Below, one piece after another: positions 2,613 to 49,844 of a DNA stretch of 49,844 nucleotides. Where the stretch lies: the NCBI GenBank assembly GCA_029068395.1, contig JAIECQ010000152.1, positions 1 through 49,844 on the forward strand, read 5' to 3'. Origin of the DNA: Rikenellaceae bacterium (GTDB taxonomy: Bacteria; Bacteroidota; Bacteroidia; Bacteroidales; Rikenellaceae). A program made the position numbers and the translations under genes. The notes under the pieces were generated by a model, which was given only the letters and a program-made list of their open reading frames with translations, was not told where the DNA came from and did not search any database. Numbering within the stretch: the stretch's first letter is position 1; every line of letters begins with the position of its first letter.

Positions 2613-3038
2613 ATGACAACGAAACGTGCGATTGGTCCAATACTCCCGACATTGATTTGCACATGGACGAACAGCTATGGGTTCTCGTGCGGTTTGTATG
2701 GACGGGCCCATCATATCGTCTTGAGGTCTGACCGGTATGCTCTCAACGCTGACGGTGATGACCTTGCATACATTACTGTTCAGATTGCCGATAAGGATGG
2801 GAATGTGATTCCGACAGATAACAGGCGTGTCGGATTTTCAGTGTCAGGCTCCGGAACATTTGAGGCCACGGCCAACGGCGATCCCACATCGCCGATGTCG
2901 TTTCAGAATCCTGAAATGTATTTGTTCAGCGGTGCGGCAACTGCAATCGTGCGCAGTGGTAAAGATAGCGGCTATTTGATTTTTACAGCATCTGCAAAGG
3001 GGGTAAGACCTGCAACGCTGACTATAAAGGTGTGGTGA
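2613..3038 (+). pseudogene. Orphan 3' fragment of a GH2-type beta-galactosidase (C-terminal Ig-like/DUF4982-type domain)
   Basis: The translation ...LRSDRYALNADGDDLAYITVQIADKDGNVIPTDNRRVGFSVSGSGTFEATANGDPTS...GAATAIVRSGKDSGYLIFTASAKGVRPATLTIKV matches the conserved C-terminal module of Bacteroides GH2 enzymes. No catalytic domain exists upstream: 2400-2612 is broken in all frames. Confidence 0.6.
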
Positions 3039-3066
3039 TTTTTATTGCGATACCGTGTGCTGTATG

Positions 3067-3600
3067 CTATTGAAGCCGCATGCTGTTCAGTTTCAAATGA
3101 TGTAAAAGCTTGTTGTCTAACTCTTTGCAACTATCTTCTATTGATTTGCCGGCGGTGTCAATAACTATCCTGTCGCTTTCCCATGGGTGAAATGTCCTGT
3201 TCTCGACATCTTCCCATGAGGGCAGTTTCAGGTTTTCAACCTCTGTAATCCTTGTCTCTATCCTCTGCTTATGTTCTTTACGGTCTGAGCAGGTGATTTC
3301 GATGTTGACAAAATCACTGTGATTGTTTTTTGCTATGGTCTCCCACGCCATGCGGGTGATGTTGATGGGGTTACAGCTGTCAGCCACAACATTGATGCCC
3401 AGCTTCAAGTGTTCTGCCGCAATACGGTAAGCCAATTGGTAGCCTTCCGTAACGACCTCAATATGGCATAGGTCTCTCAGTCCTTGCTCGATGGTGTCGA
3501 TTCGGATGTATGGAATATTGTATTTCTTGGCCAGAAATTGAGAGAGTGTTGATTTGCCGGTGCCAGGCAGGCCTGACATGATAAATAATATCGGATTCAT
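3067..3600 (-). CDS. P-loop kinase of the AAA_33/zeta-toxin-like superfamily (uncharacterised ATP-binding protein)
   Basis: Walker A motif MSGLPGTGKSTL directly after the chosen start (MNPILFIMSGLPGTGKS, ATG at 3600); about 177 aa. The gene is visibly AT-richer than its neighbours. Confidence 0.7.
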   Translation of the reverse strand: MNPILFIMSGLPGTGKSTLSQFLAKKYNIPYIRIDTIEQGLRDLCHIEVVTEGYQLAYRIAAEHLKLGINVVADSCNPINITRMAWETIAKNNHSDFVNIEITCSDRKEHKQRIETRITEVENLKLPSWEDVENRTFHPWESDRIVIDTAGKSIEDSCKELDNKLLHHLKLNSMRLQ

Positions 3601-5630: not shown

Positions 5631-5933
5631 ATGGAAAATGAGATTTATAACAACGAAAAGGCGTGTCGTCTTGAGATAGATGTGGATGGCAAGTATGCCT
5701 ATGTAGAATATTTGCTTACGCCCGACTGCATTGCACTCACCCACACGTTTGTGCCCCGCGAGCTGAGAGGACGCAAGTTTGCCGAGAGGTTAGTGGAGGC
5801 CGCCATAGAGATGGGCAAGAAGAAAAAGCTCAAACTCAACCCGGTGTGTCCATATGTTCAGGCATATATATTGCGGCACAAGCCCGATATAGAGGTGGTG
5901 TCGGTAAACACTGCGTCGAGTTGCGTGTTATGA
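5631..5933 (+). CDS. Small GNAT-like N-acetyltransferase (YjdJ type)
   Basis: 100 aa. THTFVPRELRGRKFAERLVEAAIEMGKKKKLKLNPVCPYV matches the single-domain GNAT-like family. Confidence 0.7.
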   Translation: MENEIYNNEKACRLEIDVDGKYAYVEYLLTPDCIALTHTFVPRELRGRKFAERLVEAAIEMGKKKKLKLNPVCPYVQAYILRHKPDIEVVSVNTASSCVL

Positions 5934-5950
5934 TGATAGCACAGTGACGG

Positions 5951-5986
5951 AAAAAAGGTCTGCATAAACAGATATGCAGACCTTTT
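5951..5986. terminator. Bidirectional terminator between the convergent GNAT and thioesterase genes
   Basis: AAAAGGTCTGCATA (5953-5966) / TATGCAGACCTTTT (5973-5986): a GC core flanked by an A run and a T run. Confidence 0.75.
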
Positions 5987-6002
5987 GTGTTGTTGTGTGG
6001 TG

Positions 6003-6710
6003 TTATCTCCACTCTATAGATGCAAGCATTACAGGCGTTTGGTCTATGACAATGAAACTGTCGGTGTCTTGGTGTCGGTCTGTTTTGAGGGTGAGTCTTT
6101 GACCCAATACCGACTCTTTGATGAAGTTGGCGTCCAAGCGTCTTATTGTCTGCGACCTGAAGCGTTCGGTGTCTATTGTGTCGAGCATCCAGCCTATATA
6201 TCTTACCGTGTTGGTATGGCCGTTGAAGTCTATGTCGGAATAGCGTACCGACCGGGTCTCCTGCTCTTGGTAAGAGGCGAGCGGACGCAGCCTGAGCGGA
6301 CGTGCCATGCCTATGTCGCAGGGTTCTGTGGCGCAGTTGTCGAGCCACTCCAACGACATCGGCTTGCGTGTTGTCAGGTCTATCACAGACCATAGCGTCG
6401 TGGCGCGCGCCACTGTCTGTCCGTTGCCGTCACACACACGGTGGTGGCGTGTGGTGAAAATGCGGTCGAGCGATTCGACCCATGTTGTTATGGTGAATCG
6501 CTCGTGTTCCGCAAGTCTGCGTTCTATCTCGACGGCAAAGCGTGACAGCACCCATGTGGCGTTACGTGCACTCAGGTGCACGACACCGAAGCCTCCTGCA
6601 TCGGCATCTTCGCCTGCCGACTGCAAGATACAGTCGCTAAGGGCTGTGAGTGTCTGCCCTCTGGTAAAGTCGACATCTTTAGGCCATACCTTATGTTCGT
6701 ATGCGGCCAT
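6003..6710 (-). CDS. Acyl-[acyl-carrier-protein] thioesterase
   Basis: 235 aa. Double hot-dog thioesterase pattern (VDFTRGQTL..., ATWVLSRFAVEIERR, DIDFNGHTNTVRYIGW). The start lies 3 nt after the glyA stop, so it is probably co-transcribed. Confidence 0.8.
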   Translation of the reverse strand: MAAYEHKVWPKDVDFTRGQTLTALSDCILQSAGEDADAGGFGVVHLSARNATWVLSRFAVEIERRLAEHERFTITTWVESLDRIFTTRHHRVCDGNGQTVARATTLWSVIDLTTRKPMSLEWLDNCATEPCDIGMARPLRLRPLASYQEQETRSVRYSDIDFNGHTNTVRYIGWMLDTIDTERFRSQTIRRLDANFIKESVLGQRLTLKTDRHQDTDSFIVIDQTPVMLASIEWR

Positions 6711-6713
6711 GAC

Positions 6714-8003
6714 TTATCGGCGTGACCAAGCGAACAGCGGGTAATTGGCCATCATCTTGTTGACCTCGTGCTTGACCTCGGCGATGACCTCTTCTGAGTC
6801 GGGGTTTGAGAGCACACGGTCTATAAGCGCCACTATCGCATCCATCTGCTCTTCTTTGAGTCCACGGGTGGTTATGGCTGGCGTTCCTACGCGTATGCCC
6901 GAGGTGAGGAAGGGCGAGCGGCTGTCGTAAGGCACCATGTTTTTGTTGGTGGTTATGTCGGCGTTAACCAGTGCTTTCTCTGCCGCCTTGCCGGTAAGCT
7001 CCGGGAATTTGGTGCGCAGGTCTATGAGCATAAGGTGGTTGTCGGTGCCTCCCGACACTAACTTATAGCCGCGTTTGATAAAGGCGGCAGCCATTGCCTG
7101 GGCGTTTTTCCTGACCTGGGTCTGGTATTCGACATAAGACGGTTCGAGTGCTTCGAGGAAAGCTACCGCTTTGGCCGCTATGACATGTTCGAGCGGGCCG
7201 CCCTGCACCCCGGGGAAGACTGCCGAGTTCAATATCTGCGACATCATCTTGACCTGTCCTTTGGGTGTGGTGTAGCCCCACGGATTCTCGAAGTCCTTGC
7301 CCATGAGAATGATGCCTCCGCGGGGACCGCGCAGTGTCTTGTGGGTGGTCGATGTCACTATGTGGGCATGTTTCACCGGGTTGTCGAGCAGGCCTGCGGC
7401 TATGAGACCTGCCGTGTGTGCCATGTCTATCATGAGCAGGGCGCCCACCTTGTCGGCAATCTGACGCATGCGTGCATAGTTCCATTCGCGGCAGTAGGCC
7501 GATGCACCGCCCACTATGAGCTTGGGCTTGGTCTCGAGAGCCAGCTTCTCCATCTTGTCATAGTCGATGGTGCCTGTGGCTTCGTCGACCTGATAGCCTA
7601 CGGCCTTGTAGTTGATGCCCGAGAAGTTGACGGGAGAGCCGTGCGAGAGGTGGCCTCCGTGGGCAAGGTCGAGACCCATGAAGGTGTCGCCGTGACGCAA
7701 TACAGCCGTGAAGACGGCCATGTTGGCCTGGGCGCCCGAGTGGGGCTGCACATTGGCGTATTCGGCGCCGTAGAGCTTGCAAAGACGGTCTATGGCCAGC
7801 TGCTCGACCTTGTCGACAATCTGGCAGCCGCCGTAATAACGGGCTGACGGATAACCTTCTGCATATTTATTGGTGAGCACCGAGCCCATGGCCTCCATTA
7901 CCTGGTCGCTGACGAAGTTCTCAGAGGCGATAAGCTCTATGCCGTGCATTTGACGCTCTTTCTCTTGCTCTATGAGAGAAAATATTTGGGTGTCTCTTTC
8001 CAT
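6714..8003 (-). CDS. glyA: Serine hydroxymethyltransferase
   Basis: [20 protein letters not shown] and [15 protein letters not shown] (PLP lysine) motifs; 429 aa. Confidence 0.97.
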
Positions 8004-8029
8004 GATGTGTGGTTTGATTTTTTATCTAT

Positions 8030-8037
8030 CAAAGATA
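8030..8037 (-). promoter_or_regulatory. -7 promoter box TATCTTTG for glyA
   Basis: The reverse complement of caaagata matches, 27 nt upstream of the glyA ATG. An AT-rich palindrome TTTGATAAATCAAA (8047-8060) sits near the expected -33 position. Confidence 0.45.
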
Positions 8038-8141
8038 AAGAGTTTATTTGATAAATCAAAATATGGTTTCATTTTTATATGAAAACATCCGTTTGTCCTA
8101 AATGTCAGAGTGTGAGACGGTGTGTCGCGTGGCGGTGTCTG

Positions 8142-9005
8142 TCAGTTCATGGCCGTTATGGCCCATACGGTGAAGATGGCATAGAGGCAGCTGGCCACGC
8201 CGTTGGTGGTTCCGAAGGCCAATCCGACGCGCGAGAGGTCGTCGGGTCTGACTATGGTGTGCTGATATGTCACAAGGCATGTGAATATTATTGCTCCTAT
8301 GGCGTAAATGGCTGTTGGTATGTAGCATAACCCTATTGTAATGACTAAGGCCGTTGCGCACATGTGCATGGCTCGGCTGACGGCCAGTGCCTTGCTGGCG
8401 CCGAGGGCGGCGGGTATGGAGTGGAGTCCGGCCCGGCGGTCGAAATGCTCGTCTTGCAGGGCGTATATGATGTCGAAGCCGCCGCACCACATCACAACCA
8501 GCAGCGAGAGCAGCATGGGCGCCACGGCGAAGCTGCCGGTGACCGATATGTAGGCCGCAGTGGGAGCCACACCCAGGCTGAGACCCAGCACAATGTGACA
8601 CAGTGCCGTGAAGCGCTTGGTGTAACTGTAGCCCAGCACCAGCGCCAATGCCACGGGCGACAGGGCCAGCGTGAGGGTGTTTATGGTGGCTGCCGTGGCC
8701 ACGAAGAGCACCGAGCAGACGATAACGGCGGCCAGCACGCTACGGGGAGAGAGCACCCCCGCAGGCAGCTCGCGATTTTCCGTGCGCGGGTTTGCCGCGT
8801 CGATGTGGCGGTCGGCATAACGGTTGAAGGCCATGGCTGCCGTGCGGGCGAAAAACATGCACAGCACCACCTTGGCCAGCAGTATGGCAGAGAAACCGCC
8901 GGGATGCGCCGAGGTGCCCATTGCAAAACCGATAATCGCAAAGGGTAACGCAAATATGGTGTGGGCAATCTTTATGAGCGATGCGAAATTCTTTATCGTG
9001 GACAT
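8142..9005 (-). CDS. UbiA-family aromatic prenyltransferase (4-hydroxybenzoate polyprenyltransferase-like)
   Basis: 287 aa, polytopic. Contains the Asp-rich motif NRYADRHIDAANPRTENRELP and a second DxxxD-like region (ALQDEHFDRRAG). Confidence 0.8.
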   Translation of the reverse strand: MSTIKNFASLIKIAHTIFALPFAIIGFAMGTSAHPGGFSAILLAKVVLCMFFARTAAMAFNRYADRHIDAANPRTENRELPAGVLSPRSVLAAVIVCSVLFVATAATINTLTLALSPVALALVLGYSYTKRFTALCHIVLGLSLGVAPTAAYISVTGSFAVAPMLLSLLVVMWCGGFDIIYALQDEHFDRRAGLHSIPAALGASKALAVSRAMHMCATALVITIGLCYIPTAIYAIGAIIFTCLVTYQHTIVRPDDLSRVGLAFGTTNGVASCLYAIFTVWAITAMN

Positions 9006-9089
9006 GATGGTGGGTTTGTGTGCTTTGGTCTGTTTTTGTCTGCCTGTGGCCGTGTTGTGTCCTGACCGCTCTTTGCGGGCAAAAGCGTC

Positions 9090-11204
9090 TTATATCTTTT
9101 TCAGCTGTATGCGTCCGCGTGCCTTGTCGACCGACAATATGCGCACTGTCACATGCTGGTGCAGCCTGACCACGGTTGACGGGTCGCTTATGTAACGGTC
9201 GGCCAGCTGCGATATGTGCACCAGTCCGTCTTGCTTGACGCCTATGTCGACGAATGCTCCGAAAGCGGTGATGTTGGTCACTATGCCCGGCACCTCCATG
9301 CCCTCGGCAAGGTCGTCGATGGAGCGGAGCCCGTCGGCAAACTCGAACGCCTCTATCTTGTCGCGCGGGTCACGTCCCGGCTTGGCCAGCTCGGCCATAA
9401 TGTCGCCTATGGTGGGCATGCCTATCTTGTCGGTGACATAGTTCTGGGGCACTATACGGGCCTGTAACGTCTTGTCGGCAACCAGTGAGGCGGTGTCGAC
9501 ACCCAGGTCGTGCGCCATGCGTTCCACCACAGGGTAGCTCTCGGGATGCACGGCGCTGTTGTCGAGGGGGTTGTCAGCGCCGGGTATGCGCATGAAGCCC
9601 GCGCATTGCTCGAAGGCCTTGGCGCCGAGGCGGGGCACCTGCCTGAGCTGGCGGCGGCTTTTGAAGGGTCCGTTTTGCGCGCGATAGTCGACAATGGCGG
9701 CGGCAAGGCTCTCGCCGATGCCGGAGACGTAACGCAGCAGGTGGCGCGAGGCGGTGTTGAGGTCGACACCCACGTTGTTGACGCAGCTTGCGACCACGCT
9801 GTCAAGCGACTCCTTGAGCTTGGCCTGGTCGACGTCGTGCTGGTATTGTCCCACGCCTATCGACTTGGGTTCTATCTTGACAAGCTCAGAGAGTGGGTCT
9901 ATGAGGCGGCGTCCTATTGATACCGACCCGCGCACCGTCACGTCATGGTCGGGAAACTCCTCGCGCGCCACTGCCGAGGCCGAATATACCGATGCGCCGT
10001 CTTCGCTGACCATGAAAACGCGGATACCCTCAGGCAGCCTCATCTCTTTTATCATGCGTTCGGTCTCGCGTCCCGCCGTGCCGTCGCCCACGGCCACCGC
10101 CTCGCACTTGTAACGCTCTATCAGTGAGCGCAGCGTTGACATTGTCTTTTCGCGTTCGTTCTGCGGCGGATGGGGGTAGACCGTCTGGTTGTGCAACAGC
10201 GAGCCGTCACTGTCGAGGCACACCACCTTGCAGCCGGTGCGGAAGCCGGGGTCTATGGCCAGCACGCGGCATGCGCCCAGCGGCGGCGACAGTAGCAGCT
10301 GGCGCAGGTTTTCGCCAAAGACGCGTATCGACTCGCCATCGGCACGCTCTTTGGCCTCGGCGATGGTCTCGTTTTCGATGGAGGGGCGCAGCAGACGCTT
10401 GTAACCGTCGCGTACGGCGGCGTCGACAAATGCGGCGGCCGGCTGACGCATGCCGGGAGCGAATGTGCGTGTTATGGTGTCTGAAATCTCGGCGTCGTCG
10501 ACCTGTATGCCCATCTTTATCACACCCTCGTCGGCGGCGCGCATAAGGGCCAGTAGGCGATGCGCAGGTATGCGTTTCAAAGGCTCGCTGAAGTCGAAGT
10601 AGTCTGAATATTTGGCGCCCTCCTGCTCTTTGCCTGACACAACCTTTGCCGTCACCGAGCCTTTGGTGGAGAAAATGCGTCGTACAGAGCCTCTTATGCG
10701 CACATTCTCAGCGACCCACTCGGCAATTATGTCTGAGGCTCCCGCCAGCGCCTCCTCTTCTGTGGTCACCTTGTCGCCAGTGAATCGTGATGCCGCACGT
10801 TCGGGGTCGGCGCCCTTCATTATCATGGCGGCCAACGGTTCAAGCCCCTTCTGGCGGGCTGCGGCGGCACGGGTGCGTCGCTTGGGCCTGTAGGGCAGAT
10901 AGAGGTCTTCAAGCTCTTTGGGGTCGGTGCATGCCTCTATGCGGGCTTTCAGCTGGTCGGTCAAGGCGCCGGCCCCAGCTATAGCCTCACACACCGTCAC
11001 CTTGCGCTTTTCAAGCTCGGTGAGAGCGCGGTACATGGCGGCAATGTCGCCTATGGTGACCTCGTCCATGCCGCCGGTGGCCTCCTTGCGGTAACGGCTC
11101 ACGAAAGGTATGGTGGCCGACTCCTCGAACAATAGACGGCAGAGGGCCGCAACGTGAGAGCTTTTACGCCCAGTTCTCTGTGAAATGATCTCTATTATAT
11201 TCAT
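9090..11204 (-). CDS. tex: Tex-like transcription accessory protein (YqgF/HhH/S1 domains)
   Basis: N-terminus ...ATIPFVSRYRKEATGGMDEV and a C-terminal S1 domain (GIVTNITAFGAFVDIGVKQDGLVHISQL). ATG at 11204 chosen (MNIIEIISQ...). Confidence 0.9.
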   Translation of the reverse strand: MNIIEIISQRTGRKSSHVAALCRLLFEESATIPFVSRYRKEATGGMDEVTIGDIAAMYRALTELEKRKVTVCEAIAGAGALTDQLKARIEACTDPKELEDLYLPYRPKRRTRAAAARQKGLEPLAAMIMKGADPERAASRFTGDKVTTEEEALAGASDIIAEWVAENVRIRGSVRRIFSTKGSVTAKVVSGKEQEGAKYSDYFDFSEPLKRIPAHRLLALMRAADEGVIKMGIQVDDAEISDTITRTFAPGMRQPAAAFVDAAVRDGYKRLLRPSIENETIAEAKERADGESIRVFGENLRQLLLSPPLGACRVLAIDPGFRTGCKVVCLDSDGSLLHNQTVYPHPPQNEREKTMSTLRSLIERYKCEAVAVGDGTAGRETERMIKEMRLPEGIRVFMVSEDGASVYSASAVAREEFPDHDVTVRGSVSIGRRLIDPLSELVKIEPKSIGVGQYQHDVDQAKLKESLDSVVASCVNNVGVDLNTASRHLLRYVSGIGESLAAAIVDYRAQNGPFKSRRQLRQVPRLGAKAFEQCAGFMRIPGADNPLDNSAVHPESYPVVERMAHDLGVDTASLVADKTLQARIVPQNYVTDKIGMPTIGDIMAELAKPGRDPRDKIEAFEFADGLRSIDDLAEGMEVPGIVTNITAFGAFVDIGVKQDGLVHISQLADRYISDPSTVVRLHQHVTVRILSVDKARGRIQLKKI

Positions 11205-11419
11205 ATAAAGTCTGTTTGACAAAACCACGGTTTCATGGGTGCCGCAGGGGTTTTGCCGGTGTGTTGTGGCCTGTCAATTTTTTTTACCGGAAAAAACATA
11301 CTATCTTTATAACCTTGAAATGCAGATACGCCTGTGGTGCGGTATGATAATTGCGGTCTGTAAAGTGCAGGCCGATAGCGATATATGGTGTGTATTTGCC
11401 AAATAACAACACAAATTTT

Positions 11420-13678
11420 ATGTCAAAGAAAGTAAAAAAAGAGTTTCAATCCAAAGAGGAGATTCTCAAAGCAATCAAATATCAGTTTCAGGAAGACCCG
11501 TTACGTGTGTTTACCACGCGCGATTTCACACGCATAAAGTCGTTGCGCGGGCTGACCATGGCGCAGTCTAAAGAGGCGCTCAGAACGCTGTTGTCTGACG
11601 GTTACATAACAAGTGTCGAAGATGACCGTTTTCGTGTCAATCCCGACGGGCGCGACCTCATCTCGGGCGAGGTGACGGGCATGACGCAGTATTGCTATTT
11701 TGTAAAGACCGATGCCATGGATGAGGATCTTGTGGTGGCCATGGAGAACGGCATGAACGCCCTTGTGGGCGACGTTGTCAACGTGGCATTGTTGAGCAAG
11801 CTGCGCCGCGGTCGCCGTCAGGGTGTGATAATGAAGATAGTGGAGCGTAAGAATAACCGTTTTGTCGGCGTGGTAGAGCGCTCGGAGCGTTACGCCTTTG
11901 TCGTGACCGACTCGCGGCGCATGCCCTTCGACATATTCGTGCCCATAGCCGACCTGCTCGGTGCCTCTGACGGCGAGAAGGTGCTGGTGGAGATTGTTTC
12001 GTGGGACCACGGCAACCGCACCCCCAACGGACGTGTGGTAAGCCGCTTCGGAGCCTCGGGCGACAACAATGCCGAGATGCACGCCATACTTGCCGAATAT
12101 GGTCTGCCATACAGGTTTGACGAGTCGATAGAGGCTGAGGCGGAAAAGATTCCCGAGTCCATAACAGACAAGGAGACGGAGGGACGACGCGACTTTACCG
12201 GCATAACCACCTTTACCATAGACCCCGACGATGCCAAGGACTTTGACGACGCCCTGTCGATACGTCGTCTTGACAACGGTCTGTGGGAGATAGGCGTGCA
12301 TATTGCCGACGTGACCCATTACGTCACCGAGGGTACATTGCTCGACAAGGAGGCGTTAGACCGTGCCACATCGGTCTATCTGGTAGACCGCGTGGTGCCC
12401 ATGTTGCCCGAGAGGCTCTCCAACGGGTTGTGCTCGCTGCGTCCGGGCGAGAAGAAGCTGTGCTTTTCCGCCGTATTCGAGATGAACGATGAGTGCGAGG
12501 TGTTGTCGGAGTGGTTCGGCCGGACTGTCATATATTCCGACCGCCGATTTACCTACGATGAGGCCCAGCAGGTGATAGAGACGGGCAAGGGCGACTTGGC
12601 CGAAGAGATAACCACCCTCAACCGTCTGGCTCTCAAGATGCGCGCCGACAGGTTCAAAAACGGCTCCATAGCCTTCGAGCGCGACGAACCCAAGTTCAGA
12701 TTAGACGATAAGGGGCATCCTACCGGTGTCTATTTCAAGGTGATGAAAGAGGCCAACCATCTTATAGAGGAGTTCATGCTGCTGGCCAATCGCCACGTGG
12801 CCCGCTTCATAGGTTCGCGCAAGAAGGGACGCGCCAAGGCCCCCACGTTCGTGTATCGTGTGCACGACAAGCCCAACGAAGAGAAGTATCAGGATTTCAG
12901 GACGTTTGCGTCCAAATTTGGCTACACCATTAAAGAGGCCACATCAGACCGTGCCATAGCACGCGAGCTCAACCGTTTCCTTGGCAAGATAAAGGGCAAA
13001 AAAGAGGAGAACCTATTCTCCATACTGGCCCTCAGGTCTATGGCCAAGGCTATCTATTCGGTCGACAACATAGGCCATTACGGCTTGGCGTTCGACTATT
13101 ACACCCACTTCACATCGCCCATCAGGCGTTATCCCGACATGATGGTGCACCGTCTGTTGCAGCACTATCTCGACGGCGGCAAATCGGCCGACCGCGACCA
13201 TTACGAGGAGCTGTGCCGTCACTCGTCAGAGCGTGAGGTAAGGGCTGCCGAAGCCGAGCGCGCCTCTATCAAGTACAAGATGGTGGAGTTCATGTCAGAC
13301 AAGATAGGTGCGGAGTTTGACGGCTTCATATCGGGCATCACCGACTGGGGCATATTCGTGGAGCTGGCCGACACCAAGATAGAGGGCATGGTGTCGGTGC
13401 GCGACATGACCGACGATACCTACAACTTCGACCAGGAGAATTACAGGCTGGTGGGTGTGCGCTCACGCCGCGTCATCATGCTGGGCGACGCCGTCAGGGT
13501 GCGTGTGTTGCGTGCCGACCTCAAACGCAAGCAGCTCGACTATGAGCTGGTGTCGCACAAAGATTACGCCACGGGCCGTGAGGTCTCTTTCGAGCCTGAC
13601 GATTTGCGCGGAAGCTCTGGCAGAAAGGGTGGCAAAGGCAAACGGCGCGATAAGAAGGAGGGCAAGAAAAAACGATAG
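11420..13678 (+). CDS. rnr: Ribonuclease R
   Basis: RNB domain motifs (TIDPDDAKDFDDALS, HYGLAFDYYTHFTSPIRRYPD), a C-terminal S1 domain and a basic K/R tail. ATG at 11420 (MSKKVKKEF) chosen over the TTG at 11351. Confidence 0.93.
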   Translation: MSKKVKKEFQSKEEILKAIKYQFQEDPLRVFTTRDFTRIKSLRGLTMAQSKEALRTLLSDGYITSVEDDRFRVNPDGRDLISGEVTGMTQYCYFVKTDAMDEDLVVAMENGMNALVGDVVNVALLSKLRRGRRQGVIMKIVERKNNRFVGVVERSERYAFVVTDSRRMPFDIFVPIADLLGASDGEKVLVEIVSWDHGNRTPNGRVVSRFGASGDNNAEMHAILAEYGLPYRFDESIEAEAEKIPESITDKETEGRRDFTGITTFTIDPDDAKDFDDALSIRRLDNGLWEIGVHIADVTHYVTEGTLLDKEALDRATSVYLVDRVVPMLPERLSNGLCSLRPGEKKLCFSAVFEMNDECEVLSEWFGRTVIYSDRRFTYDEAQQVIETGKGDLAEEITTLNRLALKMRADRFKNGSIAFERDEPKFRLDDKGHPTGVYFKVMKEANHLIEEFMLLANRHVARFIGSRKKGRAKAPTFVYRVHDKPNEEKYQDFRTFASKFGYTIKEATSDRAIARELNRFLGKIKGKKEENLFSILALRSMAKAIYSVDNIGHYGLAFDYYTHFTSPIRRYPDMMVHRLLQHYLDGGKSADRDHYEELCRHSSEREVRAAEAERASIKYKMVEFMSDKIGAEFDGFISGITDWGIFVELADTKIEGMVSVRDMTDDTYNFDQENYRLVGVRSRRVIMLGDAVRVRVLRADLKRKQLDYELVSHKDYATGREVSFEPDDLRGSSGRKGGKGKRRDKKEGKKKR

Positions 13679-13690
13679 GCAGACTTGATG

Positions 13691-13728
13691 CAGGCGCGTC
13701 CTTTGCGGGGCGCGTCTGTTTTTTTTTT
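13691..13728 (+). terminator. Terminator of rnr
   Basis: GC-rich stem of about 11 bp CAGGCGCGTCC/GGGGCGCGTCTG, followed by T10 (13719-13728). Confidence 0.85.
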
Positions 13729-13925
13729 GAAGCGTGGCTTTTGTGTTTTTTTGAAAAATATGTCGTGAAAAAAATCAGGATTATTTGGTTGTCAGGAAAA
13801 TAAAAGGTATATTTGTTTTGTAATCATGAGGCTGGTTTTGGCTTGAATGCCATTCTTGTTTGTGTGGCGGCTTATTTTTGAATGTCCTTTGAGTTAGCGG
13901 CAGTCTTTGGCAAAACTTTTGTATC

Positions 13926-14474
13926 ATGAAAAAAATTCTGTTTTTTATTCTTTTCGCCTTCACATGTAGCGGCGTCTACGCTCAAAATTACGAGCCTGAA
14001 TTTGATGGCGAGGTTGTCGGTGTGTATGCCGACGGGTCTTCTAAGAAGCTTGAAAAGCATACCGTGCAGATAAGGACCACCGCAGGGGTGTACATAGCGG
14101 GGTTTGCGGCGAGCAAGGTCAAGACCAAGGTGATGATAGACGGCGACAAGGCCGGGGTGCGCTTCAGTGCCGACGAGCCTATTGTGCTGATAGTGCGTGC
14201 CAAAGACAACAAGGCAGACCCCATGTCTATAGTGCGCGTGTTTAATATGAAGAGTACCAAAAAGAACCGTCAGGCGGTCATCGCTGCCGTGGGGTCGTTT
14301 TCGGTCGACTCCAACACAATGGATTACCTGCCTTTCACGGCAAAGAAATATGGCGAAAGCTCTTATGAACTGTCATTAGAGCGCCGACCCTCGGGCGAAT
14401 ATGGCATCATAGTGCAGAATCCCAACAATGTTGACGAGAAGATGGTCATCGTCTCTACATTCGGCATAGACTGA
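13926..14474 (+). CDS. Hypothetical secreted protein (signal peptide)
   Basis: MKKILFFILFAFTCSGVYAQ is a signal peptide. 182 aa with no motif I recognise. It stands alone between two terminator and promoter regions. Confidence 0.6.
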   Translation: MKKILFFILFAFTCSGVYAQNYEPEFDGEVVGVYADGSSKKLEKHTVQIRTTAGVYIAGFAASKVKTKVMIDGDKAGVRFSADEPIVLIVRAKDNKADPMSIVRVFNMKSTKKNRQAVIAAVGSFSVDSNTMDYLPFTAKKYGESSYELSLERRPSGEYGIIVQNPNNVDEKMVIVSTFGID

Positions 14475-14511
14475 TAGGGTGACATAAAGTAATGACAGGG
14501 CAAGGTGCGGC

Positions 14512-14868
14512 TTAGTTGCGTCTTGCCTTTTTTCTGTTTTCCATTATCACGGGTAAATTGACGCGTCCCCATTCCATCAGTGACATTATGCGGGGCATGA
14601 GGTCGGTGCCGAGCGGGGTGATGCGATATTCCGAACGTGGCGGCACCTCGGCGTACAACGTGCGTTCGACAAGTCCGTCGTCGACAAGACGGTGGAGTGT
14701 CGAGGCCAGCACCTTTTCCGAGACCGAGGGTATCTGACGGTATAACTCGTTGAACCGCATGGTGCCGGCCTCAGTCAGCCGAAGCAACACGACGAGCATC
14801 CATTTGTCGGCGAACCATTCGAGTACGGGGGCTGCCGGGCAATATTCATAGTCTAACTTTTTTGCCAT
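14512..14868 (-). CDS. HxlR-family transcriptional regulator
   Basis: 118 aa. CPAAPVLEWFADKWMLVVLLRL...RFNELYRQIPSVSEKVLASTLHRLVDDGLVERTLY is the HxlR winged-helix signature. Confidence 0.88.
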   Translation of the reverse strand: MAKKLDYEYCPAAPVLEWFADKWMLVVLLRLTEAGTMRFNELYRQIPSVSEKVLASTLHRLVDDGLVERTLYAEVPPRSEYRITPLGTDLMPRIMSLMEWGRVNLPVIMENRKKARRN

Positions 14869-14986
14869 GCCGATTGGTTGAAAATGAGCGGAACTAACCT
14901 CGTGGTAAGGATGTTACCTGTGGGTAAGTTGTTGGGTGGTATTGTTTTGCGGTGTAAATTTACATCGTAAAATTAATAAAAACAAC

Positions 14987-15877
14987 ATGATTCCGCAATT
15001 ACATTTCACAGGGCCGGTGTGGCGTCCGCCATACGAGGCCGACTCGCAACTGTTGCAACTGACCTCCGGGTGTTCGTGGCACAAGTGCAAGTTTTGTTCG
15101 CTCTATCACGGCACACGTTTCAGAATGTCGCCTTTGTCGGAGATAGAAGAGGATCTGAAAGTCATACGAGAGTTTCAGCCGCGCGCGCGGAGGGTCTATC
15201 TTACCGGGGCCAATCCGTTTGTGTTGAGCTATGACCGTCTGTTCGAAGTGGCGGTTCTTCTGCGTAAGTATCTTAGACACATGGAGTCGTTCGGGATGTT
15301 CGCCCGCGTGACCGATATTGCACCCAAGACGGTCGAGCAGTTGCGCAATCTGCGTCATCTGAGACTCGACGGCATCAATATAGGCATAGAGACGGGCGAT
15401 GACGAGACGCTGGCCCGCATGAACAAAGGGTATGTCGCCGCCGACATCATAGAACAGTTGGGAAAGTTGGAGCAGGCGGGCATACGTTACAATGTGGTCT
15501 GTATGTCGGGATTGGCCGGCAGGGGCGGGGGAGTGCGTAACGCCCGTAATACGGCTGAGGTGCTCAACAGATTGGCGCCGTATATAGTCAATGTGGTGTC
15601 GCTCACGGTTTTCCCCGAGTCGGAGCTTTACGGCATGGTGGAGACAGGGGAGTTTGAAGAGGCGACGGAGAGGGAGCGGCTTATGGAGGTGCGCACGTTG
15701 ATAGAGAGGCTGGAGATCGAGACCACGCTGTTGGGTAACACCGTCTCAAACGCGACGCCTTTCGTCGGTATGTTGCCGCAGGATAAAGCACGTCTTTTGA
15801 GAGAGTTCGACAGGGCTGTCGGGCAATGCGACGAGGGGCGATTGAGATGTTACAGAGAGAGTATAGATCACCTTTGA
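14987..15877 (+). CDS. Radical SAM protein, function unknown
   Basis: Cluster motif GCSWHKCKFCSLY (spacing CX4CX2C as read from the DNA) in a TIM-barrel-like context; 296 aa from the ATG at 14987. Divergent from the HxlR gene. Confidence 0.75.
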   Translation: MIPQLHFTGPVWRPPYEADSQLLQLTSGCSWHKCKFCSLYHGTRFRMSPLSEIEEDLKVIREFQPRARRVYLTGANPFVLSYDRLFEVAVLLRKYLRHMESFGMFARVTDIAPKTVEQLRNLRHLRLDGINIGIETGDDETLARMNKGYVAADIIEQLGKLEQAGIRYNVVCMSGLAGRGGGVRNARNTAEVLNRLAPYIVNVVSLTVFPESELYGMVETGEFEEATERERLMEVRTLIERLEIETTLLGNTVSNATPFVGMLPQDKARLLREFDRAVGQCDEGRLRCYRESIDHL

Positions 15878-35651: not shown

Positions 35652-35887
35652 CAAATTTTCGACGAGTCTCAAAACAGAATGCCATATTTTTATGTCTGTG
35701 CGGCTATTTTGGCTGCGTGACACGTGTTGGCGCTTGTCCGGTATTGTCGTGGCCAAAGTCGGTGAGTCGGGGGGTGCTCTCGCTCGGTAAAATGCAAACC
35801 CGTACTTTGACCTGTCGGTCTAAGATACTCCCGCTTCGGAAAACAAACGAGTTTGTTTTTCTCTCAGCTTATCCGTATCTTTGCATT

Positions 35888-45173: not shown

Positions 45174-47366
45174 CTATCTTATGAAGAGCAGTTCGCGATA
45201 TTTGGGTAGCGTCCACACCCTGTCGTCGACGATAAGCTCGAGTTTGTCGATGTGTCGTCTTATCTCGCTCATAAGCGGCACCACAGTGTCGTGGTAGGCT
45301 ATGGCCTTCTCGCGCTCGCACTCTATCACGTTGGCGGTCTTGCGTGCGTTCACCAGTTTGGTGACGTTGTCGGTTATGAAGTCGACATGGCCCGATATCT
45401 GGCGTATAAGCTCTATGTCGTGGCGCGACATACGTTCGGCCTCCTCATGGTCAAAGAGCGCCTTTATCTTATAGACGTTGTCAAGCAGCACCGACTGATA
45501 GCCCGAGGCTACCGGCACTATGTGGTTCATGGTGAGGTCGCCAAGCACGCGGGCCTCTATCTGTATCTTCTTGGTGTAGGTCTCCCATGCCACCTCGGCG
45601 CGCGATTTGAGCTCGCGGCGGCTCAGCACCCCTGTACGCTCGAACATCTCCACGCTGCCGTTATCGACATAACGGTCAAAGATGAGGGGCACGCTCGTCT
45701 GGCAGTCGAGACCGCGTCGTGCCGCCTCGGCCTTCCACTCCTCGCTGTAGCCGTTGCCGTCGAACCATATGGCCTTGCAGTCGACGATAAGGCGTTTGAC
45801 GGCTGCAACCAAGGCCACCTCTTTGCTCATGCCTCCGGCGATAAGGGCGTCGACCTCGTCTTTGAAACGGCACAGCTGGTCGGCGACGGCGGCATTGAGC
45901 ACCAGCATGGCCTCGGCACTGTTGGCCGATGAACCTACGGCGCGGAACTCGAACCTGTTGCCCGTGAAAGCGAAGGGTGAGGTGCGGTTACGGTCGGTGT
46001 TGTCTAACAACAGCTCGGGTATGTTGGCCACGCCAAGCTCTAACTGCGACTTGCCGTCGAAAGTGATGATATCGTCGGTGTCGGCCGACTCCAGGCGTTC
46101 AAGCACATGGCTTATCTGTGTGCCCAAGAAGATGGATACTATGGCGGGGGGTGCCTCGCCTCCGCCCAGACGATGCGCGTTGGTGGCCGAGCTGATAGAG
46201 GCTTTGAGAAGTCCGTTGTGCGAGTGCACGGCTTTCATAACGTTGACAAGGAAGGTGACAAAACGCAGGTTCTCCAGCGCGTTGTCTCCGCCCGGCGACA
46301 GCAGGTTGACGCCTGTGTCGGTGCCGAGGCTCCAGTTGTTGTGTTTGCCCGATCCGTTGACTCCCTTGAAGGGCTTTTCGTGAAACAGCACGCGGAAGCC
46401 GTGGCGGCGGGCAACCCTGCGCATGACCACCATCAAAAGCAGGTTGTGGTCGTTGGCAAGGTTGGTCTCCTCGTATATGGGGGCCAGCTCGAACTGGTTG
46501 GGGGCCACCTCGTTATGACGTGTCCTGACAGGTATGCCTAACTTGAGGGCCTCTATCTCTAACTCGGTCATGAACGCCAGCACCCTTGATGGTATGGCGC
46601 CGAAGTAGTGGTCTTCGAGCTGCTGGTTTTTGGCGCTGTCGTGGCCCATGAGCGTGCGCCCCGTGAGCATGAGGTCGGGACGCGCAGCCCACAACGACTC
46701 GTCGACAAGGAAATACTCCTGCTCCCAGCCCAGATATGACACCACCTTGCTTACGTCGTCGTAGAAATAGCGGCACACATCGAGCGCGGCACGGCACACC
46801 GCATGGGTCGATTTGAGCAGCGGCGTCTTATAGTCGAGGGCATCGCCGGTGTATGATATGAACACCGTGGGTATGCAGAGTGTGTCGCCAACCACAAACG
46901 CCGGCGACGATATGTCCCAGGCAGAGTAACCGCGAGCCTCGAAGGTGTTGCGTATGCCTCCGTTGGGGAAGCTTGAGGCGTCGGTCTCTTGCTGTATCAG
47001 CATCTTGCCCGAGAACTCCTCTATGACACCGCCGCGGCCGTCATGCTCTATGAATGCGTCGTGCTTCTCGGCAGTGCCGCCCGTAAGAGGGTGGAACCAG
47101 TGGGTGTAATGGGTGGCGTTCATGTCTATGGCCCACTGACGCATGCCCTGGGCCACGCTGTCGGCGATATTGCGGTTCAACGGCAACCCTTTGTCGATAG
47201 ATTCGGTGAGGCTTCTGAAGGTACCCTTGGTGAGGTACTTCTGCATCCTCTCTCGGTTGAAGACGTTGACTCCGAAAAGTTCGGACGGACGGTGGGCGGG
47301 GGTCTCTAACTTGACCGGTTTGCGGCGGAAGGCCTCGGTAAGCAGTTCGAATCGCAAGATGCTCAT
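45174..47366 (-). CDS. glnN: Glutamine synthetase type III
   Basis: 730 aa, the size typical of GSIII. N-terminus MSILRFELL...FGVNVFNRERMQKYL, with catalytic-core motifs such as NGSGKHNNWS. Confidence 0.93.
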   Translation of the reverse strand: MSILRFELLTEAFRRKPVKLETPAHRPSELFGVNVFNRERMQKYLTKGTFRSLTESIDKGLPLNRNIADSVAQGMRQWAIDMNATHYTHWFHPLTGGTAEKHDAFIEHDGRGGVIEEFSGKMLIQQETDASSFPNGGIRNTFEARGYSAWDISSPAFVVGDTLCIPTVFISYTGDALDYKTPLLKSTHAVCRAALDVCRYFYDDVSKVVSYLGWEQEYFLVDESLWAARPDLMLTGRTLMGHDSAKNQQLEDHYFGAIPSRVLAFMTELEIEALKLGIPVRTRHNEVAPNQFELAPIYEETNLANDHNLLLMVVMRRVARRHGFRVLFHEKPFKGVNGSGKHNNWSLGTDTGVNLLSPGGDNALENLRFVTFLVNVMKAVHSHNGLLKASISSATNAHRLGGGEAPPAIVSIFLGTQISHVLERLESADTDDIITFDGKSQLELGVANIPELLLDNTDRNRTSPFAFTGNRFEFRAVGSSANSAEAMLVLNAAVADQLCRFKDEVDALIAGGMSKEVALVAAVKRLIVDCKAIWFDGNGYSEEWKAEAARRGLDCQTSVPLIFDRYVDNGSVEMFERTGVLSRRELKSRAEVAWETYTKKIQIEARVLGDLTMNHIVPVASGYQSVLLDNVYKIKALFDHEEAERMSRHDIELIRQISGHVDFITDNVTKLVNARKTANVIECEREKAIAYHDTVVPLMSEIRRHIDKLELIVDDRVWTLPKYRELLFIR

Positions 47367-47445: not shown

Positions 47446-48150
47446 TTACAGCCCCAGATAGTTCATCACCACCGACACCAACGGTATGGCGAATGTGGTC
47501 ATTACGCCCATCACGCCTATGGCCAGCCCGCTGATGGCCCCTTCAACGGCACCCATCTTCATGGCGGCAGCCGTGCCCACGCCGTGTGACGAGGCTCCGA
47601 AAGCAAGCCCTCTGGCCACGGGTGACGATATGCGGAACACCCTGAACAGCCACGGAGCCGCCACCGCTCCGAAAATACCGCATATGACAACAGCCATGGA
47701 GGTGAGCGAGGCAATGCCGCCAGAGCGTTCCGACAGCTGTATGGCTATGGGCGTGGTGACCGACTTGGGCTGCATTGAGGCAACGACAGCATGGTCGGCA
47801 CCCGTGAGTCGCAATATGACGATGACGCTGACAACACCTACAATGCTGCCCACGAAGGTGGATACCAGTATGGAGGTGGCGTTCTCTTTTATATGTTCAA
47901 CCTGTTCATAGAGAACGTAACCCAATGACACCACCGTGGGGCCGAGCATGAACGATATCATCTCGGTCGACTCCTTATATGTCTGGTAAGGAACTCCCGT
48001 GACCTTGAGCAGCGTTATAAGCACCACCATGGACACGATGAGCGGATGAAGCACCCCTAAGTGTAGCTTGGAGAAGAGCCACACCGCACCCAGATAGGTG
48101 GCAATAGTCATGGTGAGCCAAAAGAGATGCGACCCTATGAACGCTTCCAT
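47446..48150 (-). CDS. lrgB: LrgB/CidB-family membrane protein
   Basis: 234 aa, polytopic. ...SVTTPIAIQLSE..GG...L....V...G family block. The start is adjacent to the lrgA stop. Confidence 0.88.
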   Translation of the reverse strand: MEAFIGSHLFWLTMTIATYLGAVWLFSKLHLGVLHPLIVSMVVLITLLKVTGVPYQTYKESTEMISFMLGPTVVSLGYVLYEQVEHIKENATSILVSTFVGSIVGVVSVIVILRLTGADHAVVASMQPKSVTTPIAIQLSERSGGIASLTSMAVVICGIFGAVAAPWLFRVFRISSPVARGLAFGASSHGVGTAAAMKMGAVEGAISGLAIGVMGVMTTFAIPLVSVVMNYLGL

Positions 48151-48516
48151 TTACCGACCCTCCTTTCTCTTGCGCCCGAAGCTTCTGACACCTATTTTCT
48201 GTTGCAGCAGTCCTACGGTGGCTATCACTATAATGGTGCTTAGTGTTGAGGCCAGTACTATGCCCAGGGCATTGCGCGATATGAGGTCTAACGATGCCAC
48301 CACACCAACGGCCGGAGGCAGGAAGAAGATGACCATGTTGCCGATAAGAGCTTTGGCTACCGTGTCGACACTTGCAGGCTTGACAATCTTAAGCGAGAGA
48401 GCACCGAACAAAAGCAACATGCCTATGACACTCCCGGGAATGAAATCGCCGGAGAGGATGGCGATGCCCTCGCCAATGAGGTAGAAAACAAGAATTACAA
48501 GCGTCTTATTAAGCAT
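48151..48516 (-). CDS. lrgA: LrgA/CidA-family holin-like membrane protein
   Basis: Four TM segments and about 121 aa from the ATG at 48516 (MLNKTLVILVFYLIGEGI...). The alternative ATG at 48546 would start only 8 nt after the -7 box. ORF start 48618 is rejected. Confidence 0.82.
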   Translation of the reverse strand: MLNKTLVILVFYLIGEGIAILSGDFIPGSVIGMLLLFGALSLKIVKPASVDTVAKALIGNMVIFFLPPAVGVVASLDLISRNALGIVLASTLSTIIVIATVGLLQQKIGVRSFGRKRKEGR

Positions 48517-48554
48517 TGTATTGGCGACATTGGTTTGTGTGCGCATTTCGGTGG

Positions 48555-48562
48555 CAAAGATA
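48555..48562 (-). promoter_or_regulatory. -7 promoter box TATCTTTG for lrgAB
   Basis: The reverse complement of caaagata matches, 38 nt upstream of the ATG at 48516. Confidence 0.45.
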
Positions 48563-48637
48563 AAAAGAAATAGATAAAAAACGATAAAAAATGACGGATA
48601 CTTACAGCCCAATACCACCCCGGTGATGCCATTGCAT

Positions 48638-48731
48638 TCACTGCCGGTGAGGCGGTCACTGCGGATATTGTCTTGCCTTCACTGCCGGGGATGGTTTGCG
48701 GTCACTGCCGGTATGTTTTGCTGGCACTGCC
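48638..48731. repeat. Array of five same-orientation TCACTGCCGG-type direct repeats at 18-23 bp spacing
   Basis: TCACTGCCGG at 48638, 48679 and 48702; TCACTGCGG at 48656; GCACTGCC at 48724. Confidence 0.75.
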
Positions 48732-48774
48732 TCCGGCGGCCCTTCCGGGGGAGGGGTCACGGACCCCGTTTTGA

Positions 48775-48782
48775 TATTTTTG
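48775..48782 (+). promoter_or_regulatory. Orphan -7 promoter box TATTTTTG with no downstream CDS
   Basis: Exact TAnnTTTG match. It is preceded by a small hairpin GGGGTC-ACG-GACCCC and followed 24 nt later by the long hairpin terminator. Confidence 0.35.
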
Positions 48783-48805
48783 AGGGCAAACTAAGCGGAT
48801 AAGTA

Positions 48806-48869
48806 CGAAAGATAGGAGTAAAGGTGTTTCGACTCGGGTCTCACACCTTTACACCTATCTTTCGTTTTT
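48806..48869 (+). terminator. Long hairpin (22-bp stem, one mismatch) plus T5: plus-strand intrinsic terminator with no upstream CDS
   Basis: CGAAAGATAGGAGTAAAGGTGT (48806-48827) / ACACCTTTACACCTATCTTTCG (48843-48864), 15-nt loop, TTTTT at 48865-48869. There is no T run in the minus-strand orientation. Confidence 0.6.
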
Positions 48870-49055
48870 GGCCCTTGGGCTGAGTGCCTGAATGATATTC
48901 AACAGGGGCAGGACTCTCGACGGAAAAGGGTGCGGGAGCAAAGCAGAAACATAACAGCAGGGCGGCAACCATAAGCAGCAGCGTAGCAAAGCATTACGGG
49001 CGGTACGGAAGCATAGCCGCACAGCCGCAACCACCGGCACAACGGAGAGCGGCAC

Positions 49056-49162
49056 GGAGCCTGCGGAGGGCACAGCATGAAAATGAAGAGCATCACTGCC
49101 GTCACTAATTCACTGTCATATATTGCTGTGCGGGGTTGCGGCCCTCCGTGGGGAGAGGCTCC
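49056..49162. repeat. GC-rich palindromic structured element, copy 1
   Basis: GGAGCCTGCGGAGGGC (49056-49071) pairs with GCCCTCCGTGGGGAGAGGCTCC (49141-49162). An inner helix CACAGC/GCTGTG is also possible. It is followed by hairpins at 49171-49192 and 49215-49232. Confidence 0.8.
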
Positions 49163-49311
49163 GGGCCGCTCGGGACTCGTTGCCTCGTCCCGGGCATAAG
49201 GAATTTTTGCTTACGGCATAGTTCGTTATGCCGGGCATGCAGCAAGCATAACATTAGCGCGGCAACCATAAGCAGCACAGCCGCAACCACCGGCACAGCG
49301 GAGAGCGGAAC

Positions 49312-49420
49312 GGAGCCTGCGGAGGGCACAGCGAGAAAGTCATGTGCATAATCACCGTTCCTAATTCACTGTCCTATATATTGCTGTGCGGGGTTGCGGC
49401 CCTCCGTGGGGAGAGGCTCC
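49312..49420. repeat. GC-rich palindromic structured element, copy 2
   Basis: Same arms as copy 1, at 49312-49327 and 49399-49420. It is followed by hairpins at 49429-49449 and 49473-49490. Confidence 0.8.
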
Positions 49421-49732
49421 GGGCCGCTCGGGCTTCGTTCCTCAGCCCGGACACAAAGAATTTTTTGCTTACGGCATACTTCGTTATGCCGGTGATAAGG
49501 AATAGTGTGCGGTTTCGTTGCACTAAAACCGCAGTGGTTGCTTTAATTGATTAGTTATTTACTGGTGTTCTCATTCCTTGTGCTTTCATTCCCTTGGTGG
49601 TTGTGGGCCGACCGCAGGTCGGCCTCATCGGCGTGGAGGTCGATGGCGTGATGATGGTATGGCGTGGTGAGTGACAAAGACGTGTGGCACCTTGGGTTGG
49701 CCGGTACGTGCCTTTAGCGTGGAGGAGCCACG

Positions 49733-49843
49733 GGCCGAGCCTGCGGAGGCAAGCGGGGAAGTGACGCGCATAACCGCCGTGACTTAGTCACTGTCTACAA
49801 TTGCGTGGCGGGGTTACGGGCCTCCGCGGGGGGAGGGTCGGCC
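49733..49843. repeat. GC-rich palindromic structured element, diverged copy 3 (abuts the window edge)
   Basis: GGCCGAGCCTGCGGAGGC (49733-49750) pairs with GCCTCCGCGGGGGGAGGGTCGGCC (49820-49843). The conserved loop half TCACTGTCTACAATTGCGTGGCGGGGTTACGG is retained. Confidence 0.7.
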
Positions 49844-49844
49844 C

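Follow-up and report, generated by a model that had tools for sequence, protein, structure and literature searches.

The window analysed here comprises positions 1–49,844 of contig JAIECQ010000152.1 of a Rikenellaceae bacterium (GenBank assembly GCA_029068395.1). Its tail, beyond the lrgA gene, carries a genuine array of non-coding modules that are repeated and strongly folded, and that represent an undescribed and rare family. The core of each module is an element of ~120 nt, set in a unit of ~260–420 nt, and the window holds three copies of it (elements A, B, and C). The array is most likely read as RNA from the + strand, and we tentatively propose (probability of about 0.4) that the modules are accessory structured RNAs moving together with the non-coding cassette arrays of a diversity-generating retroelement (DGR) with many templates in Rikenellaceae gut bacteria, and that they probably serve as a platform for protein binding or processing. 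Transcription of the array, its putative binding of proteins, and any influence on the DGR are predictions from the sequence.

Architecture and folding of the array

Element copies were placed using a covariance model built from the copies themselves. The model places exactly three copies in the 49.8-kb window, all on the + strand and at 102–133 bits, and the inner pattern TCACTGTC..ATTGC...GCGGGGTT has three occurrences compared with none expected from shuffles, which bears out the three-copy architecture described in a first-pass annotation of the same sequence. Two of the copies lie in tandem units (units A and B), also as annotated: Tandem Repeats Finder reports a period of 258 bp over 49015–49492 (1.9 copies, 87% matches), and similarity between the units reaches back to 48947 across a 41-nt indel. 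Small hairpins (hp2 and hp3) follow elements A and B, with hp4 following B in addition. The features of the array are:

49047..49168, + strand: element A (covariance model 129.7 bits, fold, pair counts)
49303..49426, + strand: element B (covariance model 132.9 bits)
49727..49844, + strand: element C, type 2 (covariance model 102.3 bits), cut by the window end
48942..49234, + strand: unit A, consisting of preamble, element A, hp2, and hp3 (Tandem Repeats Finder, repeat search, alignment with unit B)
49241..49540, + strand: unit B, consisting of preamble, element B, hp2, hp3, AUAAGGAAU, and hp4 (repeats, fold, alignment)
49171..49192, + strand: hp2 of unit A, CGGGAC/GUCCCG with loop UCGUUGCCUC (folds, covariation)
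49429..49449, + strand: hp2 of unit B, CGGGCU/AGCCCG (folds, covariation)
49214..49233, + strand: hp3 of unit A, CGGCAUA/UAUGCCG with a UUCG-containing loop (fold)
49472..49491, + strand: hp3 of unit B (fold)
49509..49532, + strand: hp4 of unit B, GCGGUUU/AAACCGC with loop CGUUGCACUA (fold)

No credible open reading frame (ORF) had been seen beyond lrgA, and this holds: the longest in the ORF listing of the window tail is 74 aa, and A and B are offset by indels of 1, 2, and 41 nt that disrupt every reading frame, so a conserved reading frame is excluded and a coding small peptide is ruled out. The elements had also been called GC-rich; at 60–69% GC, versus 50–63% in neighbouring genes, they are not GC-rich relative to their surroundings.

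The element folds into an outer helix (P0–P1), an internal loop of 6 nt confined to the 3′ side (GGGGAG in element A, or GGGGGG), an inner helix (P2), and a loop of ~69 nt. The long-range stem that the first-pass annotation drew around ~69 nt is thus present, but it is longer than described, with the outer helix P0 (CGGC/GCCG) bringing it to ~21 pairs. In the ~69-nt loop the 3′ half is conserved (UCACUGUC..AUUGC..GCGGGGUU) and the 5′ half varies. Between A and B, identity is 96% in the 5′ arms and 100% in the 3′ arms; within the insert it is 62% over a 32-nt segment at the 5′ side and 95% over the remainder, in agreement with the variable 5′ part noted earlier amid near-identical flanks; hp2 is 77% identical, with compensatory changes in its stem. 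Element C has one G:C pair fewer in both arms, so that P2 is one pair shorter, and a G-C to C-G swap in the outer helix, both changes having been read correctly at first pass.

Five further copies were found outside the window, in two other metagenome contigs, here termed L002 (four copies) and L012 (one copy). L002 is a 6.8-kb contig (1–6786) of an uncultured Rikenellaceae metagenome-assembled genome (MAG) that, like the window, ends inside the array; its copies are at 2104–2226, 2331–2450, 6254–6376, and 6558–6678, the second of which is the closest relative of element C and is followed on its 3′ side by ~190 nt of further structured sequence. The L012 copy (436–565) is more diverged, and is a GC-rich island in AT-rich DNA.

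Pairs were counted over these eight copies from three genomes, which are related to one another and were aligned by fitting to the structure of the model. The 21-pair long stem is 92.6% paired, with five pairs doubly changed; these measures were matched by 0–2 of 500 column shuffles, and pairing falls to 39–54% when the partners are slid by 1–3 columns. In L002 2331–2450, one C and its partner G are deleted from the two arms. Given the kinship of the sequences and the fitted alignment, these figures lend support but are not conclusive. The non-Watson-Crick cells of the long stem comprise 16 G·U versus one A·C, an excess which indicates that the + strand is the one that folds, whereas its complement does not; the U·G changes seen in hp2 and hp4 also pair on the + strand only. 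This points to a single-stranded form, namely RNA or, less likely, single-stranded DNA (ssDNA), and not to a double-stranded inverted repeat, and supports the earlier proposal that structure is under selection.

The small hairpins show the same kind of change. The compensatory difference noted earlier between the hp2 stems of A and B (CGGGAC/GTCCCG versus CGGGCT/AGCCCG) extends across the copies, where hp2 is 97% paired, has four of its six pairs doubly changed, and exists in three stem versions beneath a conserved loop (UCGUUnCCUC). In the L002 copies, hp3 has another, unrelated stem (ACAC/GUGU) and retains its UUCG-containing loop, and hp4 retains its stem via U-A to U·G changes. The loops of hp2–hp4 are conserved, each with UCGUU, and AUAAGGAAU is found 3′ of both hp2 and hp3. 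Two additional pairings were considered and rejected: candidate pairings for a further helix within the 69-nt loop (CACAGC/GCUGUG for A and B, CCGUGACUU/GGGGUUACGG for C) are not kept in the other copies, and a pseudoknot joining the G-rich internal loop to the CCUC in the loop of hp2 is not kept in L002 2104–2226.

The stem could also be read as the inverted repeats of an invertible promoter segment, as the first-pass annotation had raised. The interior contains sequences close to the −7 box of Bacteroidetes (TATATTGC, TATAATTG, and TACAATTG), and recombining inverted repeats would co-vary too; however, the arm mismatches are almost all G·T on one strand, the arms are just ~69 bp apart, there is no TTTG at −33 distance, and no invertase was seen. 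In all eight copies the interior points the same way with respect to the flanks, the wobble asymmetry indicates a single-stranded form, and no recombinase was found in the adjacent sequence; an inverton is therefore disfavoured, and we regard this explanation as highly improbable.

Relatives of the element and DGR context

The element is very rare. An exact-pattern scan of 185,579 GTDB species genomes (one per species) gave one true match (L002) and one chance match inside a coding sequence, and the same kind of scan of JGI metagenomes gave only two chance matches, in high-GC coding sequences. DNA-pattern scans of IMG/VR gave no match, and no relative of the MSL protein of L002 (see below) was confirmed in an IMG/VR scan; phage and plasmid collections gave no blastn match to the tail, and a protein search with the concatenated six-frame translation of the array, aimed at spurious ORFs, found nothing. 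The carriers related to the window organism are Rikenellaceae, and not Muribaculaceae as had been anticipated.

A further assembly of the window organism contains a contig of 48,575 bp that is 100% identical over the 11.4 kb compared, and ends at window position 48843, inside a terminator-like hairpin (M2, described below). If this contig is fully colinear, its other end would be at approximately window position 269, just past a variable region at the left end of the window. Based on these breaks, one observed and one deduced, both window ends are repeat boundaries, which implies that further array copies exist elsewhere in the genome. The tandem structure itself is not an assembly artefact, as had been allowed for: A and B differ by 13%, and L002 is an independent assembly with the same layout.

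A link between the element and a DGR emerges from the relatives, and is context beyond what the first-pass annotation could see. L002 encodes a MutS_I-like (MutS-domain-I-like, MSL) protein and a bAvd-like protein, and Msl and Avd are DGR accessory proteins (PMC5758913; bioRxiv 10.1101/2024.11.15.621889). Downstream of these genes are four tandem non-coding, AAC-rich Fib_succ_major template repeat (TR) cassettes (1458–1645, 1739–1929, 2715–2905, and 3114–3307), with an RT-7-like RNA between two of them (2950–3101; 42.7 bits, E about 4e-8, below the gathering score); RT motifs have been proposed as DGR or retron RNAs (PMC5737381). Between the second and third cassettes (TR2 and TR3), and on the same strand, is a module (~2000–2650) composed of two elements, hp2–hp4, and the ~190-nt tail. 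The 5′ part of the normal TR upstream flank precedes this module, which therefore occupies a cassette slot. In L012, the element lies ~550 nt upstream of MSL–Avd, in AT-rich DNA; in both of these informative loci, the elements are co-oriented with MSL, Avd, and TR cassettes.

L002 was retrieved solely by the sequence pattern of the element, and L012 solely by MSL homology. That a very rare element led to a DGR, and a DGR gene to the element, makes a chance link unlikely, although the association may be a phylogenetic coincidence if a single clade commonly carries both. The TR cassettes of L002 end in a terminator, and no reverse transcriptase (RT) is present on the contig; the RT may be elsewhere, or the locus may be decaying. 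At the left end of the window, positions 3–242 (+ strand) are the 3′ end of a truncated gene (stop codon 240–242), the last ~65 codons of which specify a Fib_succ_major/C-type-lectin-like module. When this region (49–242) is compared with TR3 of L002, 25 of 38 mismatches fall at cassette adenines; it is a DGR variable region (VR), with the adenine signature of DGRs apparent even across genomes.

Complete loci of this DGR family were recovered via spurious ORFs called on TR cassettes. One contig (L017) encodes MSL and Avd, followed by nine tandem TR cassettes (9029–11922) with three RT-7-like RNAs, and then the RT; several assemblies of one species (L019–L027) have 18–23 tandem cassettes occupying 7–8 kb between Avd and RT (about 7650–15200), with cassette number varying between strains. 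L010, another contig of this family, has at least three TR cassettes (1171–1920). RT-7-like RNAs precede some of the TR cassettes in this Rikenellaceae family. We found no description of multi-TR DGR arrays in the literature, and this family may deserve more attention than the element itself. The complete loci lack the element, and on this basis it is accessory, and dispensable for that DGR.

Two further observations concern this DGR family. Dozens of 63–67-aa ‘Fib_succ_major’ mini-proteins (P0044–P0084) occur in single Rikenellaceae MAGs, and in one MAG (locus tags K2N21_...) many different contigs each carry one such mini-protein; these look like VR-bearing gene ends at contig breaks, similar to the left end of the window, and would imply dozens of DGR targets per genome. 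A hairpin followed by a T-run is conserved right after the Avd stop codon (L002 1290–1380, L010 985–1060, L011 2505–2575, and L012 1950–2020), and could act as an attenuator separating the protein-coding genes from the TR cassettes.

Comparison with known families

No known RNA family was matched, as had been stated at first pass. An Rfam 15 search of window positions 47500–49844 at E ≤ 10 gave only microRNA-type noise on the M2 hairpin, a search of the whole window at the gathering threshold gave no matches, and ARAGORN detected no tRNA or tmRNA. Among the closest known systems are the RT-7 and RT-10 motifs, which are structured RNAs beside reverse-transcriptase genes; in the DGR of the Bordetella phage, RT-10 is situated between TR and RT (Weinberg et al., 2017; PMC5737381). 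Like these, the element is structured and non-coding, and occurs on the TR strand in the non-coding part of a DGR locus; moreover, RT-7-like RNAs are present in the TR-cassette arrays of this DGR family (L002 2950–3101, and three times in L017). The element differs in matching neither motif in sequence or structure, in being missing from most loci of the DGR family, and in occurring also at sites away from DGR genes. The RT-7 model (RF03028) has no match in the window tail, and the RT-7-like matches elsewhere in the L002 and L017 arrays (36–43 bits, compared with a gathering score of 116.8) are off the element; the element as a diverged RT-7 was rejected for want of any similarity. Elements A and B were also considered as a DGR template/variable repeat pair. 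Of the 12 substitutions in the 32-nt segment, five involve an adenine in copy A and three in copy B; the substitutions are not adenine-specific, and DGR mutagenesis of this segment was therefore rejected.

The main rival explanation is a selfish or neutral palindromic repeat, resembling repetitive extragenic palindromes (REP/BIME) or miniature inverted-repeat transposable elements (MITE), that spreads or is duplicated between genes and accumulates in tolerant non-coding DNA such as TR-cassette arrays; we consider this a doubtful but serious possibility. The stem would then correspond to terminal inverted repeats or to a hairpin of ssDNA that a transposase recognises, and an ssDNA hairpin could likewise tolerate one-strand G·T pairs. 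As in such repeats, of which Correia elements and ERIC are examples, the element is short, palindromic, intergenic, multi-copy, and sometimes clustered, and breaks short-read assemblies, which suggests more genomic copies. Its copies adjoin unrelated genes across genomes (lrgA, GH20, upstream of MSL), it is missing from most loci of the DGR family, and the L002 DGR, with no RT on the contig, could be decaying.

MITEs are defined by terminal inverted repeats plus a target-site duplication. The arms of the element could act as terminal inverted repeats; however, no target-site duplication was found flanking either the single copy in L012 or the insertion in L002, the two insertion contexts examined, and the 53-nt direct repeats in L012 (351–401 and 632–682) belong to a local AT-rich repeat. 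REP/BIME families are defined by high genome-wide copy number plus an associated RAYT transposase; here, no transposase or RAYT gene was seen, and all three copies within the 49.8 kb are in one cluster, with no dispersed copy in the other 48.5 kb of the window. The element is also larger, composite (~120 nt plus three hairpins), and rare, and duplication takes whole multi-module units rather than the palindrome alone. Copies within a genome are mosaic, with near-identical flanks and a diverged core, instead of uniformly similar, and a mobile palindrome would not need the covariation of hp2–hp4 under conserved loops.

We also compared the array with tandem sibling small RNAs (sRNAs), such as Listeria LhrC1-5. 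Both comprise tandem paralogous units of ~100–300 nt with a conserved scaffold and variable parts; unlike LhrC1-5, the units here have no promoter or terminator of their own and no identified targets. Under an explanation as trans-acting sRNAs or guide-like RNAs, the latter proposed in the first-pass annotation, the 32-nt segment would be a variable seed for different targets. The sharp divergence of this segment within a conserved scaffold (62% versus 95–100%) would fit, and the interior of L002 2331–2450 has a perfect 13-nt complement 40–50 nt downstream; however, the variable segments have neither a significant match nor a significant complement elsewhere in the window or in L002, their duplex energies against TR cassettes are no better than those of shuffled controls, and no effector gene is visible. 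A scan for sigma-70-type promoters identified no + strand promoter-like site inside the units, and + strand terminators are confined to the leader. We regard an sRNA or guide function as quite unlikely.

Integron attC sites resemble the element in topology. The element shares with attC (such as the Vibrio cholerae repeats; see also PMC5737381 on the DUF1874 motif) two helices, an unpaired spacer, a variable terminal loop, a single folded strand, and short-spaced tandem arrays, and one module sits in a TR-cassette slot; the elements could therefore be imagined as ssDNA-folded recombination sites that delimit ORF-less cassettes in an integron-like array, perhaps shuffling TR cassettes. The core sites of attC are R″ (RYYYAAC) and R′ (GTTRRRY), at the two ends. 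The GCGGAAC on the 5′ side of the element resembles R″ only loosely, having two purines at required pyrimidines, and there is no GTTRRRY 3′ of the 3′ arm; membership was rejected on these grounds. In addition, no integrase was seen, the ‘cassettes’ are structured hairpins and not genes, and the TR cassettes of L017 and L019–L027 are not separated by the element, all of which makes an attC-like role very improbable. RNA repeats of type III toxin-antitoxin systems, which are ~34–48-nt tandem repeats followed by an endoribonuclease toxin gene, were rejected because the units are 258 nt or longer.

Leader, flanking sequence, and possible role of the array

The genes preceding the array are all on the − strand: lrgA (48151–48546), lrgB (47446–48150), and a type III glutamine synthetase gene (45174–47366). 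The leader repeats start after the promoter region of lrgA and are followed by two terminator-like hairpins (M1 and M2); a further stretch separates unit B from element C. These features are:

48632..48731, + strand: leader repeats, five direct, ~22-nt period, core TCACTGCCGG (repeat search, Tandem Repeats Finder)
48730..48782, + strand: M1, GC hairpin CCTCCGG/CCGGGGGAGG, then GGGGTC-ACG-GACCCC, then GTTTTGATATTTTTG (terminator scan match 48753–48767)
48805..48870, + strand: M2, 23-bp hairpin followed by TTTTT, terminator-like (inverted repeat, 96% complementary)
49541–49726, + strand: G/T-rich stretch containing the palindrome of the element C preamble
49607..49625, + strand: GC palindrome GGCCGACC-GCAG-GTCGGCC, in the element C preamble

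The core TCACTGCCGG occurs exactly three times in the leader, and L002 has a looser form of the ~22-nt repeats (5790–5860); a CACTG(C/T)C core of the leader repeats recurs within every element. These repeats are possibly protein-binding iterons or a small repeat-containing RNA. A transposable-phage or Tn7-like end as their source had no supporting match by blastn against phage and plasmid collections. M1 is terminator-like on the + strand only and is kept in L002 (5862–5925), where the module in the TR array also closes with an M1-like hairpin plus GTTTTG (~2610–2630). The L002 counterpart of M2 (~5940–5995) has a different stem sequence that still pairs, the differences being compensatory. 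M1 and M2 are thus consecutive + strand hairpin/T-run terminators with no + strand gene upstream, and both are kept in L002, where the leader is followed by the array and the neighbouring gene is a GH20 hydrolase instead of lrgA. A −7-box-like TATTTTTG is located between the two hairpins (48775–48782).

The unit A preamble is A-rich and T-poor (AT skew +0.63 over 48900–49099), and shows a ~21-nt periodicity (48942–49055; CATAnCnGCAGnGCnGCAAn); its start (ACATAACAGCAGGGC) resembles the upstream flank of the L017 TR cassettes (ACATAACAGGCAGTGCAGGGC). In the element C preamble, the 23-mer GGCCGACCGCAGGTCGGCCTCAT has an identical copy at L002 6131–6153. Elsewhere in the window, a sequence of ~80 nt (35800–35883), located upstream of an ORF for a TPR protein, is ~80% identical to two tandem copies in L002 (5595–5741) that lie upstream of the unrelated GH20 gene; it is a second promoter-proximal repeat family common to the window and L002 genomes.

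We suggest that the array would be transcribed from the + strand, divergently from lrgA, and that the element family would be an accessory, movable module of non-coding TR-cassette arrays. The presence of UCGUU in three hairpin loops per unit, with AUAAGGAAU after two of them, is the basis for proposing that the repeated loops serve as a platform for protein binding or for the processing or stability of cassette transcripts; candidate partners would be Avd, Msl, and the RT. Several points weigh against this proposal. No convincing promoter was found for the array, and two + strand terminators lie upstream of it; the element is absent from L017, L019–L027, L010, L011, L015, and L018, which belong to the same DGR family; and both the window array and the second L002 cluster adjoin unrelated genes (lrgA and GH20) and not DGR genes. 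Furthermore, the ~69-nt interior has no pairing conserved across copies, the known copies number only eight, their kinship inflates shuffle-based significance, and the pairs were counted on an alignment fitted to the model's own structure.

A bolder version, which we consider unlikely, is that the family constitutes a new modular structured-RNA class of multi-template DGRs: a non-TR cassette in which the UCGUU-loop hairpins and the long capped stem would recruit or titrate the RT–Avd–Msl machinery or, alternatively, direct processing of the long cassette transcript, with the hypervariable loop giving each copy its own specificity. If true, no regulatory or scaffold RNA layer would have been described before for a DGR able to choose among many templates.

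If the modules are only selfish repeats, they would still explain assembly breaks in these Rikenellaceae genomes and mark a tolerant, fast-evolving non-coding region. If they function as RNA, they would represent an undescribed motif tied to a DGR architecture of which we found no account in the literature, with up to 23 tandem template cassettes and apparently dozens of target genes; in such a system, an accessory structured RNA would be an obvious place to look for the control of template choice, expression, and processing.

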